From Podarcis erhardii (Eukaryota), in the NCBI GenBank assembly GCA_964252035.1, contig OZ176200.1: a stretch of DNA of 64,000 bases; one strand, 5' to 3'. The notes under the pieces were generated by a model. The model did not search any database and had not been told where the DNA came from. It saw only the letters and a list, made by a program, of their open reading frames with translations. The position numbers were made by a program, and so were the translations under genes. Each line of letters begins with the position of its first letter. Within the stretch, counting starts at the first letter, position 1. Shown one piece after another: positions 1,841-64,000 of the stretch.

Positions 1841-1955
1841 TACATAACGAGAGCCCTGCTATATCAGACCAAAGGCCCATCTAGTTCAGCATCCTGTTCC
1901 CCCAGTGATCAGCCAGCTGCCAATGGAAAGCCAGCAAGATGAACCTGCCTGCAGC
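1841..1955 (-). mobile_element. CR1-type LINE 3' end fragment
   Basis: ACATAACGAGAGCCCTGCT...GGCCCATCTAGTTCAGCATCCTGTT is the reverse complement of the CR1 3' tail also seen at 34595-34833 and 43251 onward. Confidence 0.5.
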
Positions 1956-2032
1956 CCTGCTAGTTCGTCAGCTGCCTCCTCAGCTACCATGGAAATCTTG
2001 GACAGCTGGCTCCTCGCCTTATGTGTCATTGG

Positions 2033-2216
2033 CATAAGAGCCAACTCCTAGGGGCCAAGGTCTCTTCACCCCCCAAAAAATTGAGAGGGCCACCCCCACC
2101 CCAAATGATGGGCATTGACATTCAAATGGTGTGTGGGCGCCGTGTCTTGTGATTGATTATGTGTGGCAGGAATTCCCTGGGGTCCCTCTCATATTTTATC
2201 CAAGTTGGCACTTCAG
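2033..2216. mobile_element. Non-autonomous DNA transposon (hAT-like MITE), degenerate
   Basis: Imperfect terminal inverted repeats CATAAGAGCCAACT / AGTTGGCACTTCAG; no clean target-site duplication (TSD). Confidence 0.5.
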
Positions 2217-2729
2217 GGAATCAGCTTCCTCCCACTCCCCACCCCACCCCCTTGGCAGTAGGTAAGCAGAACAAAGGAAAAGGAGTCTCTTACCAGTTAG
2301 AAACTTTCATGATCACAGCGAGAGAACAAAGAATCCATTCCTAGGAATGAAGGTGCTCCCAATGAAGGGTCCCACCCACTTCCTCCCTAGTCACCCATGT
2401 CACTACCGCGTCTTGTAAGCTGATCACACAACCACTGTGCTTTCTGTTCTGCCACCTTATCAGCTCTTCTTGTCCTTGGGCTGGGCGGAGGAATGCTTCC
2501 CAGAGACAGTGAATCTGTTAATTCTCTCTCTCCCAGTGCTTCTTCTCCTAGCTGTTCCCCATCCACTACTTCCCAGCTTCTGCCTTCTGAACTATGTCCC
2601 TCTGCAAACCACTGTTCCAAATCTATACTGTCCTCCTGCTCCTGGGAAGATTCAGGATCCTGATCAGGAGCAGGGGGAGGCTCCCACCATTCCTCCTCAG
2701 TGCAGACCTCCTCAGGACAGTCCCTGACA
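2212..2729 (-). mobile_element. LTR-like element, copy A (same family as 50548-51052)
   Basis: Ends in CCTGACA like copy B; shares TCAGGGAATC, CTCTTACCA and CTGCAAACCACTGTT..ATCTATACTGTC with copy B; left boundary obscured by the MITE at 2033-2216. Confidence 0.55.
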
Positions 2730-32794: not shown

Positions 32795-33140
32795 GCTGGT
32801 GGTGCTGTGGGTTAAACCACAGAGCCTAGGACTTGCTGATCAGAAGGTCGGCGGTTTGAATCCCCACAATGGGGTGAGCTCCCGTTGCTCGGTCCCAGCT
32901 CCTGCCAACCTAGCAGTTCAAAAGCACATCAAAGTGAAAGTAGATAAATAGGTACCACTCCGGCGGGAAGGTAAACGGCGTTTCTGTGCGCTGCTCTGGT
33001 TCGCCAGAAGTGGCTTAGTCATGTTGGCCACATGACCCAGAAGTTGTACGCCAGCTCCCTCGGCCAATAAAGCGAGATGAGCGCTGCAACCCCAGAGTCG
33101 CCCACGACTGGACCTAATGGTCAGGGGTCCCTTTACCTTT
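32795..33140 (+). mobile_element. Sauria SINE, nearly full length
   Basis: GGTGCTGTGGGTTAAACCACAGAGCCTAGG...GGTTTGAATCCCC...CCCTTTACCTTT; 13-bp flanks ACTATTCCAACAT (32782-32794) and ACTATTGCAACAT (33141-33153). Confidence 0.95.
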
Positions 33141-34169
33141 ACTATTGCAACATAAACCATTGCACATAGAAAACAAGATGTGAATGGGAGCAATTCTAGT
33201 CTAGCTTTCCCCAGAACATGCTAGTTTTCTGTCTTGGGGGAAAACATTATATGGAATATAGCAGCATGCAATCAAGAATGCCCCCACCAGTAGTTTAAGT
33301 GGTGTGGTCCAGGCTCACCTCAGTGAGAAGCAATCCATCATTTTCTGACAGGGTATAATAGCTCAATGGGTATAGCATTGAGCAGATGCAGCAACAGATG
33401 CAGCAGCAAATGCAGGATTTCTCCTTGGCTCACAGCGATTGCAGTTACAGGTCAGGAGTTGGCAAAACACAAGTTCACCAGAAGGTTCGGCTAAAGCTCA
33501 TTGTCCCCCTCAAAGGTGATAGTGAAAATTCAGCATATAACTTGTTCTGAAATACAGACAAGGTTGGGGACCTTAATTCTTAAAGGTAAATGGAAGTCAG
33601 ACTAACTAAATATTTTAAAGACAAATACCATCAACCCATTTTTCAAGCAATTAACAGATTTTACCTTCATTTAAAGATGAAAGTTAATGAGGAGATGACC
33701 CACTTTAACAGGCTGCAGCAGCAGAGCAGAGCAAACTAGATAAGGTGGTCCAAACCAAACAGAATCGGCACACACAGCAAAGCATTAAATATTTAAACAC
33801 CATTTTGGGGAGCGGAGGCAACTCTAGTCCACTTGCCTGCTTTCTTCTTCAGCTGCTTTCGCTCGGCCTATGATGATGCTCTTATTAATCTAAAAAAGTT
33901 CCTTGAGCAAATAATTCCTTTCCCCCCAATCTGCAGGGTAATAGCAGTAGATGGATATCTCCCTCCCAGACAGCATGAAGTGGCATTTCATTATGGCTGG
34001 ACATCCAGCGAAACTGAATTTTGGAAGATTCAGGATGGATTTTTAAAAAGCACTTCTTCATGCAGCACTATGGAACTTTCTCCCCTGGGAAGCAGTGATG
34101 GCCACCAACTTGGATGGCTTTAAGAGGGGATTTGACATTTTCCTTTCTTTTGAATAACCTAAAAATGTT

Positions 34170-41595: not shown

Positions 41596-41774
41596 CAACT
41601 CACTTTAGCCACCATTGGCATGTCGGCCCTGGAAGGTTCTCCATCAGAGGCTGAAAAAAGGTTATGCACACCTGTATAAGACAGTTACAGATAGGTAGCC
41701 GTGTTGGTCTGCCATAGTCAAAACAAAACAAATTCCTTCCAGTAGCACCTTAAAGACCAACTAAGTCAGTTCTT

Positions 41775-41814
41775 GGTATGAGCTTTCGTGTGCATGCACA
41801 CTTCTTCAGATACC
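41775..41814 (-). ncRNA. Minimal type I hammerhead ribozyme motif (mirror copy)
   Basis: Minus strand: GGUAU-CUGAAGA-A-GUGUG CAUG CACAC-GAA-AGCU-C-AUACC; helix I 5 bp, helix II 5 bp, palindromic helix III AGCU. Confidence 0.7.
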
Positions 41815-41824
41815 TATCAGATAC

Positions 41825-41862
41825 GTATCTGAAGAAGTGTGCATGCACACGAAAGCTCATAC
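41825..41862 (+). ncRNA. Minimal type I hammerhead ribozyme motif
   Basis: GUAU (41825-41828), CUGAAGA (41829-41835), A, GUGUG/CACAC helix II (41837-41841 / 41846-41850), GAA (41851-41853), AGCU (41854-41857), C (41858, predicted cleavage nucleotide), AUAC (41859-41862). Confidence 0.7.
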
Positions 41863-43407
41863 CAAGAACTGACTTAGTTGGTCTTTAAGGTGCTACTGGA
41901 AGGAATTTGTTTTGTTCTGTATAAGACAGATTCTTATAGTCCCTTCATTGTCTTCTCATCCTATTGTGCATCATACATCACCACCCATTTTCCATTCAGC
42001 ACTGTTGCAGACATATAACATTATATATTACGACTATGACTGAATGATCTATCTTAGGTAATGCAATAAATTTTTGGAAAATATCTCAGAGGATTTAGAA
42101 CATGCAGAGTCAGGCAAATGAGGTGAACACTGTTAAATAGCAATGCACAAGTTACTAATTTCCCATCTTGTGTACATAATACCAGAGGTTTATTTGAATG
42201 TACACTGCATCTGCACCTTCCTGGTGATGGCCTTTTCACTCCAGCTCCCCCGAATTAAGTTAAGTATGCAAGAGTGGTGGTCAGATTTCCAATAGTCATA
42301 ATCAACTAGCAGCTCCTGTTCTTAAATACCTTTGCACATACTTAAGTGCTCCAACTGGAAATCCAGGGGGCTGAACTTCTTTGAGAGTCTGGTCCAAACA
42401 TTCCTTGTAAAACCTATTTAGTTGGAAGGCAGAAAAATATGCATTAAATGGAACATTACCAAAGAAAATCTCATTGTGAAAGTTAAAATGAGAGTAGGGA
42501 AAGGAGTCACTTGCAGTATCTTACAATTGTGAATTCCCTCCGCGATTTTATTATAGGTATCTGTTAAAATATATTATGAGGCAAATTACCAAAGGCAGTG
42601 TAGTGTGTTACAATTACATTACAATGTGTGCTACAGAGGGAAGCCATTTCAGTACCTGTAGTAGTGTGAAACCAAACCAATTTTATGACAAATGAAGTTG
42701 TAGTGTTGTCAGAAATAATGAGAGAAACAAAGGAAATTTAAACACAAAAACCCGCCTCTAACATCAATTAAATTTCAATGTCTTGTGGATTTATGTCAGA
42801 CCCCGAACGCTAATTTGAAGGGATTCTTTTGGTTAAATAATAGACTTGTTGAAAAGAAATGAAGGAAATCTGGTTATAATAGGACAAGTGTTAGTCTGCC
42901 ACTACTGTATTTATTTATGGATTGTAAAAAAAAAAAAAAAAAAAACCTAATCAAGTTTTAAACCCACATCTCAGGTAACTGGAGATGATGCCCCAATCAC
43001 ACAACAACTAATAGAGCTGTCAACAGCTTTGTCTTCATAGTATTAATGCTACAAACCCATTCCTGGCTGCACAATAACACCGTTCTCTGCATAGTCTTTG
43101 GCTTTGTCAGCCATCTTAGACCAATGGTTCCCATAGGAGGACTTGGGCCACGGAGGAGACCCAGCAGGTGCGAGTTGAATTGTGACCATTCTCAGTTTGC
43201 TGATAGGACCAGGAAGTAGAATATCAGTTTATCTACCCGATGCAATCAGCACATAAGAAGAGCTCTGCTGGATCAAGCCAAAGTCCCATGTCATCTGGCA
43301 TTCTGTACTCACAGTGATTAATCAGATGTCCATTGGAAGCTCACAAGTGGGGCCTGAGTGTAGCAGCACTCTCCCGCTCACAATGCCCAGCAACTCATTG
43401 CTGGGGG

Positions 43408-47823: not shown

Positions 47824-47919
47824 AAACAAAACAAATTCCTTCCAGTAGCACCTTAAAGACCAACTAAGTCAGTTCTTGGTATGAGCTTTTGTGTGCATGC
47901 ACACTTCTTCAGATACCTG
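47824..47919 (-). mobile_element. Solo Penelope-like terminal fragment with a mutated hammerhead
   Basis: 12-bp direct flanks ATTCTGGAGGAT (47812-47823, 47920-47931); matches the left arm of the 41722 palindrome except C>T at 47890. Confidence 0.85.
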
Positions 47920-50547: not shown

Positions 50548-51052
50548 TGTCAGGCGTCAGGGAATCTGATCCCAACACGGCAGGCTGCCAGGGACAGATG
50601 GACAAGAAAAGCTCTTACCAAAGTCTTTTATTCAGTATTCACAGAGAGAGGCTTACAAAGGCAGCCTCTTGGAGTAATGACATTGTTTAGAGTAATCTCC
50701 CCCCCCCCCTTTCCCTTCTCAATCGTCAACAGCACCACCTCTGTTACGGTACCTGCTTAAGGCCAATTGCCTCTTAGCACTATGCTCTCCTACTTTCACT
50801 GCTCGCCAGGTTCTGGGAGAAGGAGTGTCTGGAATGCTTTCTAGTGATAACATGTCAGCCAGCTGCTCTGGCTCTGCTTCTCCCCTCCCCTCCTCTTCTC
50901 CCATTATTTCCCAGCTTTGTCCCTCATCTATCTCTGAGCCGTGACCTTCTGCAAACCACTGTTGTATATCTATACTGTCTTCCTCTTCTGTGGGAGGTTC
51001 AGGAGGAGGGTGAGGCAGCCTCCACCATGCCTCCTCAGTCCAGACCCTGACA
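50548..51052 (-). mobile_element. LTR-like element, copy B (505 bp)
   Basis: TG...CA ends with a perfect 7-bp inverted repeat TGTCAGG / CCTGACA; AATAAA on the minus strand at 50627-50632; no TSD found. Confidence 0.65.
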
Positions 51053-53221: not shown

Positions 53222-53580
53222 AAAAGGTAAAGGGTAAAGTGATCCCTGACCATTAGGTCCAGTCGTGCCCGACTCTGGGGTTGCGGCGCTTATCTCACTT
53301 TATTGGCCGAGGGAGCTGGCGTACAGCTTCCGGGTCATGTGGTTAGCATGACAAAGCCGCTTCTAGCGAACCAGAGCAGCGCACGGAAACGCCGTTTACC
53401 TTCCCGCCGGAGCAGTACCTATTTATCTACTTGCACTTTGACGTGCTTTCGAACTGCTAGGTTGGCAGGAGCAGGGACCGAGCAACGGGAGCTCACCCCG
53501 TCGTGGGGATTCGAACTGCCGACCTTCTGATCGTCAAGTCCTAGGCTCTGTGGTTTAACCCACAGCGCCACCCGTGTCCC
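53222..53580 (-). mobile_element. Sauria SINE, full length
   Basis: The minus strand starts GGGACACGGGTGGCGCTGTGGGTTAAACC with an intact B box GTTCGAATCC; flanks TGCCTTA (53215-53221, 53582-53588). Confidence 0.97.
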
Positions 53581-55140: not shown

Positions 55141-55490
55141 AAGGTAAAGGGACCCCTGACCATTAGGCCCAGTTGTGACCAACTCTGGGGTTGCGGTGCT
55201 CATCTCGCTTTATTGGACGAGGGAACCGGCGTACAGCTTCCATGTTATGTGGCCAGCATGACTAAGCCACTTCTGGTGAACCAGAGCAGTGCACGGAAAC
55301 GCCGTTTACCTTCCCACCGGAGCGGTACCTATTTATCTACTTGCACTTTGACGTGCTTTCGAACTGCTAAGTTGGCAGGAGCAGGGACCGAGCAATGGGA
55401 GCTCACCCCGTCGTAGGGATTCGAACTGCCGACCTTCTGATCGGCAAGCCCTAGGCTCTGTGGTTTAACCCACAGTGCCACCCGCGTCCC
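55141..55490 (-). mobile_element. Sauria SINE, full length
   Basis: The minus strand starts GGGACGCGGGTGGCACTGTGGG; 11-bp flanks TGATGTTTCAT (55127-55137, 55491-55501). Confidence 0.97.
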
Positions 55491-61858: not shown

Positions 61859-62477
61859 TGCTTTGGAGGAAGAATCAGCACTTTGAATTGAGCCTGGAAA
61901 CCAGCAGAATTGTTTACTAGGTTGCTGCAGCTCAGCACTAGAAAGTAGAGAGATATTCTCACCGCTCTGTGCCAAGTGGCCACGTGGATAGGGGCCCTCG
62001 TTGCTGCTAGCAGCCTGAGAAAGAAAACAAGAAAATGCTTCTTATACTTCGAGGATTAGTTTGCAAAAGACAGATATTTTCAAAAGCAGGTCTATGACAA
62101 AGCAGTGGGTGAATGGGACCGGCTGCAGCTAAAATTCCAATCAACAGAGTGTGTGCTTTCTGTTTGGAGAATTATTTCAAGTGGCTGTTTTCTATGAAAA
62201 CTTCTTTGAATTAATTTTTGCCATTTATTCTGATTAAACGCACCCCCCTTTTTGGAAAGAAAATGATAATGCAATATTTCATAATTGTGGACATTTGGAT
62301 GCCATGGTGATGAGTTCGATATAAATTCCAAATGAAATAGAAGAGATTAGCAATAAATAGATTATGCAGACTAGTTACCTTTGCCAAAAACACTGCTCTG
62401 ATTTATGGCTCCATCTCTAACACTAAGAAACAACACATTTCCTAGGTTTATGAACCCTCTGAACCAATCTTACATTT

Positions 62478-64000
62478 TTGTTGTTGTTGTTTAGTCGTTT
62501 AGTCGTGTCCGACTCTTCATGACCCCATGGACCAGAGCACGCCAGGCACTCCTGTCTTCCACTGCCTCCCGCAGTTTGGTCAGACTCATGTTTGTAGCTT
62601 CGAGAACACTGTCCAACCATCTTGTCCTCTGTCGTCCCCTTCTCCTTGTGCCCTCCATCTTTCCCAACATCAGGGTCTTTTCCAGGGAGTCTTCTCTTCT
62701 CATGAGGTGGCCAAAGTATTGGAGCCTCAGCTTCACAATCTGTCCTTCCAGTGAGCACTCAGGGCTGATTTCCTTAAGAATGGATACGTTTGATCTTCTT
62801 GCAGTCCATGGGACTCTCAAGAGTCTCCTCCAGCACCATAATTCAAAAGCATCAATTCTTCGGCAATCAGCCTTCTTGATGGTCCAGCTCTCACTTCCAT
62901 ACATCACTACTGGGAAAACCATGGCTTTAACTATACGGACCTTTGTTGGCAAGGTGATGTCTCTGCTTTTTAAGATGCTGTCTAGGTTTGCCATCGCCTT
63001 TCTCCCAAGGAGCAGGCGTCTTTTAATTTCGTGACTGCTGTCACCATCTGCGGTGATCATGGAGCCCAAGAAAGTAAAATCTCTCACTGCCTCCATTTCT
63101 TCCCCTTCTATTTGCCAGGAGGTGATGGGCCCAGTGGCCATGATCTTCGTTTTTTTGATGTTGAGCTTCAGACCATATTTTGCGCTCTCCTCTTTCACCC
63201 TCATTAAAAGGTTCTATAATTCCTCCTCACTTTCTGCCATCAAGGTTGTGTCATCTGCATATCTGAGGTCGTTGATATTTCTTCCGGCAATCTTAATTCC
63301 AGCTTGGGATTCATCCAGCCCTGCCTTTCGCATGATGAATTCTGCATATAAGTTAAATAAGCAGGGAGACAATATGCAGCCTTGCCGTACTCCTTTCCCA
63401 ATTTTGAACCAACCAGTTGTTCCATATCCAGTTCTAACTGTAGCTTCTTGTCCCACATAGAGATTTCTCAGGAGACAGATGAGGTGATCAGGCACTCCCA
63501 TTTCTTTAAGAACTTGCCATAGTTTGCTGTGGTCGACACAGTCAAAGGCTTTTGCATAGTCAATGAAGCAGAAGTAGATGTCTTTCTGGAACTCTCTAGC
63601 TTTCTCCATAATCCAGTGCATGTTTGCAATTTGGTCTCTGGTTCCTCTGCCCCTTCGAAATCCAGCTTGCACTTCTGGGAGTTCTCGGTCCACATACTGC
63701 TTAAGCCTGCCTTGTAGAATTTTAAGCATAACCTTGCTAGCGTGTGAAATGAGTGCAATTGTGCGGTAGTTGGAGCATTCTTTGGCACTGCCCTTCTTTG
63801 GGATTGGGATGTAGACTGATCTTCTCCAATCCTCTGGCCACTGCTGAGTTTTCCAAATTTGCTGGCATATTGAGTGTAGCAGCTTAACAGCATCATCTTT
63901 TAAAATTTTAAATAGTTCAGCTGGAATATCATCACTTCCACTGGCCTTGTTATTTGCAGTGCTTTCTAAGGCCCATTTGACTTCACTCTCCAGGATGTCT
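62478..64000 (-). mobile_element. BovB (RTE clade) LINE, 3' portion; continues past the window edge
   Basis: 3' end GAGTCGGACACGACTAAACGACTAAAC plus (AAC)n; reverse-transcriptase motifs QAGFR, FIDYAKAFD, GVRQGCILSP, LRYADD and the C-terminal WCWRR motif. Confidence 0.97.
62491..63999 (-). pseudogene. BovB reverse transcriptase ORF with one premature stop
   Basis: One frame runs from the window edge (DILESEVKWAL...) to RTRLND*, broken only by TAG at 63214-63216 (AESEEEL*NLLMRVKEE). Confidence 0.9.

Follow-up and report, generated by a model that had tools for sequence, protein, structure and literature searches.

Coding sequence that overlaps the U3 region of the 3' LTR is found in lentiviral nef and in MMTV sag. 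In plants, the gag-pol ORF in CRM group A elements and in Bingo from beet extends into the 3' LTR, and the LTR-coded part of CRM is described, in the accessible text of the sources, as carrying a putative targeting motif (PMC3059260, PMC3605345). Self-priming is known for Tf1 and its relatives, whose range, going by the available sections of the source, reaches the vertebrates (PMC4600332). An overlap of Pol with the 3' LTR is already known in plant chromoviruses, and the very likely integrase tail of the lizard element described here would be a vertebrate variant of that arrangement. In the literature searched, such an overlap was not found for a vertebrate element; Butler 2001, Gorinsek 2004, Repbase and supplements may describe it.

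Element class of LTR copies A and B

The window, that is, the whole 64,000-nucleotide stretch of Podarcis erhardii DNA that was analysed, holds two LTR copies, A and B, with the features listed in Table 1.

Table 1. Positions of features of LTR copies A and B in the window
Feature	Position	Strand	Basis or remark
Solo LTR, copy B	50548..51052	-	TGTCAGG...CCTGACA ends; own TSD absent
U3-encoded frame, copy B, very likely the C-terminal tail of Pol integrase	50719..51051	-	110 codons + TGA; starts at second LTR base, stop-free from 51051 to 50722, TGA at 50721-50719
Conserved acidic-aromatic block, copy B residues 26-50	50902..50976	-	Alignment and structure model
Predicted basic helix, copy B residues 79-104, after SP site	50740..50817	-	pLDDT 83-94
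Putative R start and target for self-priming, in decayed form in copy B	50682..50693	-	Suggested by pairing of B-lineage PBS with LTR nt 338-366 in family copies
AATAAA polyadenylation signal, copy B	50627..50632	-	Sequence
Solo LTR, copy A	2212..2729	-	3' end short by a few bases; from a subfamily with about 56% identity to B
Integrase tail frame, copy A	2387..2728	-	113 codons + TAG; 2728 to 2390, stop at 2389-2387

The repeat had been called LTR-like in a first-pass annotation of the window and is indeed an LTR, with the TG..CA ends and 5-bp TSDs of Gypsy chromoviruses. Among family copies with both ends, the TSD is exact in 31/78 and has at most one mismatch in 59/78; copy B itself has none, as had been noted, and copy A keeps 4 of 5 bases but has lost the last few of its LTR. 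Both junctions of copy B are bridged by contigs of three organisms, so the insertion must be old. The family is large. First-look searches of the 1.5 Gb genome gave 3030 candidates by DNA and 5751 by protein, of which 40 and 150, respectively, were scored. Four subfamilies were assembled from the best 30 loci each, and 27, 28, 26 and 24 near-full-length loci were retained; identity is 84-88% inside subfamilies and 56% between A and B.

The class of the element had been left open between Gypsy, ERV and tyrosine-recombinase; the first of these stands, as a chromodomain Gypsy, and the other two do not. Junction copies with internal DNA were found by a search for the PPT pattern and by DNA search. 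Upstream of their 3' LTRs lie a Tf2-1-like SH3 domain, then a chromodomain, then the polypurine tract (PPT), and translation of the A/B junction copies gives a chromodomain with a Y-W-Y/F cage. A relic of the A lineage (L139) has its pieces in the order gag-PR-RT-RH-IN, with which the Pfam order in relatives agrees (RT-RH-IN-SH3-Chromo for Pol); PF00385 was above cut-off in 4/4 long Pol ORFs of relatives and not in the L142 fragment.

A guessed PBS pattern gave 0 matches, and the PBS was later located via gag, two 5' ends before gag being found for the B lineage. The PBS of L349 is complementary over 11 nt to the 3' LTR of L064, 32 kb downstream (controls 0/300), and these two loci are probably one element. 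The PBS of L350 pairs over 9-10 nt, directly after the stop, in 10/27 B copies, and not with its own LTR. In relatives, self-priming pairing of 10-13 nt was seen in 5/6; in the family of L148 (L148:8232-8645) the target (LTR nt 286) lies within the last tail codons, so that the same bases serve for coding and for priming. Copies A and B are solo LTRs of a self-priming (Tf1/sushi type) chromodomain Gypsy lineage.

Other repeats were seen in the window: a broken LINE reverse-transcriptase end (62423-63899, minus strand), which we take to resemble RTE-BovB; three 350-nt repeats, 88-91% alike (32798-33142, 53233-53580 and 55143-55490), presumably resembling the Sauria SINE; and a MITE-like, near-perfect palindrome of 223 nt (41708-41930; 94%), with a half copy at 47824-47918.

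Origin of the LTR frame and selection on it

Translation and alignment bore out the 110-codon open frame of copy B and the colinear frame of copy A, both of which had been noticed earlier. The purine-rich strand had been entered as a caveat, but dinucleotide shuffles (5000 trials per copy, A and B) left the given frame open in 0.2% and any forward frame open in 0.5-0.7%, and purine richness is therefore no explanation for the open frame. The LTR family is open for at least 95 codons in 24/105 copies, most copies being broken. In-frame stops occur at about 1% per codon across the family, so that some open solo LTRs are expected from neutral decay.

Seventeen junctions between chromodomain, PPT and LTR were examined, of which one was dropped for an absent PPT (n = 16); one LTR start was read by eye. 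At 9/16 of these old junctions the chromodomain and the acidic frame of the LTR are read in one frame; five of the nine share the modal chromodomain-to-LTR spacing of 116 nt (two of the five are 93% alike). Among strict A/B-lineage junctions 6/12 are in frame, and the remainder are mostly off by 1-2 nt in purine runs, shifts that are expected because the copies are about 15% diverged. L061 and L069 have duplications, of 45 and 54 nt, that cover the LTR start and a PPT-like stretch; both lengths are divisible by 3.

An intact two-LTR A/B element was not found in the genome stretches examined. Full-length elements, which the first-pass annotation had proposed as a check, were available as complete two-LTR relatives: in 4/7 of these a single Pol ORF enters the 3' LTR from upstream and stops 301-355 nt (99-118 codons) inside it, and the other three comprise one with an early stop and two broken elements. 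The tail of the young sister family also forms the end of two UniRef Podarcis Pol proteins. In an integrase tree of lizard copies only, rooted at the midpoint, the A/B lineage and its close relics stand apart from the young families (support 99). Since the overlap is seen both in A/B junctions and in these separate young families, it is common to the clade. The frame had earlier been read as the C-terminal part of an accessory gene running out of a lost internal region. An ORF coming in from the internal region does have its C-terminal part here, but that ORF is Pol (integrase SH3, chromodomain, PPT, tail), and the open frame of copy B very likely encodes the last 110 amino acids of integrase.

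Selection was measured as GY omega on frame-blind DNA alignments of real copies. The tail frame gave 0.755 and 0.760 (LRT 14.9 and 13.8), values diluted because the copies are dead; the other five frames lay at 0.93-1.17 and the region after the stop at 0.83-1.19. Net omega between subfamilies was 0.32 (0.14-0.75) and 0.35 (0.19-0.64), in an uncorrected and noisy test in which some after-stop control frames also reached 0.36-0.44. No column of the tail frame has a majority stop in any of the four subfamilies, against 1-10 such columns in every other frame. Of the shared indels, 8/12 inside the frame and 1/12 after the stop have a length divisible by 3; for singleton indels inside the frame the count is 10/45. 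These results show purifying selection in the tail frame only, among the frames tested. The frame had been proposed as conserved and coding, with dN/dS, indel lengths and consensus stops as checks, and it is real and under selection.

A young sister family was treated in the same way, with 48/53 loci kept and 40 after removal of near-duplicates; its copies had been picked by a protein search whose query was the tail, so that open tails are favoured among them. Omega was 0.26 for the integrase, 0.23 for the chromodomain and 0.46 for the LTR tail (40 copies), against 0.84-1.10 after the stop. The acidic half of the tail, at 0.62, is weakly constrained; the basic half is at 0.25. Most of the young elements with long ORFs, together with nested Copia and Gypsy insertions, are on one contig (C19), which may be a W chromosome.

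Pfam gave no match above cut-off for the A and B tails, the protein search with copy B gave no longer homologue among 268 candidates, and the named relatives in protein collections are from Podarcis only. A profile built from 16 open tails matched 7 of 1.84 billion proteins (5 are unnamed fragments, the other 2 gene models from Podarcis), and in the PDB sequences it gave a single chance match (E 0.66) and no TND-interacting motif (TIM). Across families, the A/B tail profile scored clearly for L068 and L117 only, weakly for L079 and not at all for the young families; the selection data of the young families therefore support the architecture and not the A/B sequence, and the cross-family profile did not show a motif common to the tails of all families. 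L068 also has a 234-codon open frame, acidic then basic (1910-2611, minus strand), which is possibly the LTR tail of another family. L078, L079, L081 and L083 have, immediately upstream of the PPT rather than in the LTR, an acidic-Trp-Pro block that looks like the beginning of the A/B tail, as though the LTR boundary had shifted relative to the motif. LTR pieces in the tail frame were also seen in the Podarcis gene models P0004, P0132 and P0133 (lipid flippase, an endophilin-A2 isoform and SPARC), by exonisation or as an annotation artefact.

Proposed role of the tail and competing explanations

We hold with good confidence that A and B derive, as solo LTRs, from a self-priming chromodomain Gypsy element whose LTR frame is a selected tail of Pol integrase, likely a disordered one that serves for import into the nucleus and docking on host proteins. 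Pol would read past the chromodomain, through the PPT and into the U3 of the 3' LTR, which would belong to the genomic RNA and be translated after the chromodomain; R of the B lineage, judged by the PBS pairing, would begin just after the stop. Reverse transcription would then copy U3 into both LTRs, so that every solo LTR retains the frame and yet cannot express the tail as Pol. Structure prediction had been suggested for the peptide; AlphaFold models of 16 open tails gave disorder with two helices, a short one at residues 30-34 and a basic one, predicted with confidence, at 79-104 (pTM 0.26), on a tail that is acidic and ends in the basic helix. The conserved acidic-aromatic block consists of the short predicted helix, a Ser/Glu linker and SW-x-x-hydrophobic, and may be the binding site for a partner. 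Its form SW-x-x-L/V/M might be read as a LIR/AIM. Residues 77-110 of copy B have 8 K/R against 3 D/E, and the modelled basic helix is NLS-like and would act as an NLS. By analogy with the tail of Ty1 integrase, the acidic-Trp blocks would bind a host protein; the chances that this is an import and docking tail of the Ty1 kind seem to us evenly balanced.

The tail might instead be translated as a near-neutral passenger, selection keeping the promoter DNA of U3 and the PPT region being merely stop-free. This fits the weak constraint on the acidic half, the tails of distant families, which cannot be aligned, and the low-complexity, disordered model. However, constraint at the DNA level favours no frame, and it is the tail frame alone that combines an omega below 1 with an absence of fixed stops and with in-frame shared indels. 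Its basic part is as constrained as the integrase, and 42/48 young copies have one common stop position, a count subject to ascertainment bias since the tail was the query. We therefore regard the passenger explanation as unlikely.

An accessory gene of the nef/sag kind, running into the 3' LTR, had been suggested in the first-pass annotation; a separate gene of this kind, with a start or splice of its own, is now very improbable. The last Trp of the chromodomain is only about 116 nt away from the LTR, too little to fit an upstream gene; the commonest spacing keeps the frame, and in complete relatives a single Pol ORF runs in; on the other side is the half of the strict A/B junctions (6/12) that are out of frame with the chromodomain. 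An ORF separate from pol with a start of its own was seen neither at the junctions nor in the complete relatives. More improbable still is that copy B owes its open frame to exaptation by the host as a coding exon. Given the share of open copies and the stop rate in the family, open copies are expected from neutral decay, and the three Podarcis gene models with such LTR pieces at their end or within them, in the tail frame, are predictions, although their existence, like the presence of copy B in three organisms, would agree with exaptation.

If the frame is a selected integrase tail, a coding frame under selection is present in thousands of lizard LTRs, and their U3 is both regulatory DNA and protein. 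This would account for gene models that take these repeats as exons, and would make integrase tails a candidate place for encoding import and site choice.

Sister families and known systems

Three young sister families have, between the chromodomain and the PPT, a helix-Phe, an acidic linker of 8-16 residues and FxGF, an arrangement present twice in one of the three (L136:7730-7834, L291:8097-8201 and L148:7933-8037; also Podarcis P0001-P0003). The eight motif residues are retained in 39-40/40 copies, the mean for the linker being 82%; among the other linker columns, however, 46% likewise reach a retention of 95% or more. Searched with a three-row FxGF profile, 177,635 PDB sequences gave a single match, with E 0.055, in 5YI9: the motif of JPO2 in its fusion with LEDGF. 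In the definition of TIMs, as given in the accessible portions of the sources, FxGF is needed for LEDGF and HRP2 (PMC9987994; 10.1101/624023); helix, acidic linker and FxGF are all present in the three sister families, the helix being a candidate from sequence. FxGF is absent from the A/B alignment, and in the literature searched it was not found in a retrotransposon integrase. The sister-family FxGF may be a candidate LEDGF/HRP2-binding motif. Were it to bind either protein, a retrotransposon would be mimicking a cellular motif and using the same tether as lentiviruses.

The FxGF families have lost the third and mostly also the first aromatic of the chromodomain cage; A/B and the sister family L096 keep both. 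Cage loss and FxGF amount to one evolutionary event, and their association is therefore a lead and not a correlation. Tentatively, and at somewhat less than an even chance, we suggest that lizard chromovirus integrases target through a rapidly exchanged tail of motifs, partly in U3, that one clade swapped its methyl-lysine cage for LEDGF/HRP2-like motifs, and that the A/B tail serves in parallel for docking to a different host factor. If true, that clade would have moved from reading heterochromatin to using the tether of HIV integrase, by way of motif mimicry.

As in CRM and Bingo, Pol overlaps the 3' LTR, but the lizard element has a vertebrate host, keeps a classical chromodomain upstream of the PPT, and has in U3 a tail of about 110 residues, acidic then basic, that lacks a Pfam match. 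Replacement of the chromodomain by a CR motif, as in CRM, was not seen; the chromodomain of the junction copies stands upstream of the PPT. Unlike nef and sag, which are separate genes, the lizard frame is the end of Pol, and no env was seen in the element. With Tf1/sushi elements, as far as the available parts of the sources describe them, it has in common the Tf2-1-like SH3, the chromodomain, a PBS complementary to its own LTR and TG..CA ends (PMC4600332, PMC3601003), but its U3 is purine-rich and coding, whereas that of the fish and fungal Sushi model in the same partial text is T-rich (PMC3601003). The helix-Phe, acidic linker and FxGF of the sister families are like the LEDGF-binding TIMs of JPO2, IWS1 and MLL1 in the excerpted source (PMC9987994), although their motif is placed upstream of the PPT, outside the LTR, and the A/B tail is without FxGF. 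The C-terminal bipartite NLS/targeting domain of Ty1 integrase, in the sections of the source at hand, offers the same model of short import and docking motifs in a tail (PMC7459421); Ty1 is a Copia element, and the likeness meant is one of working model.
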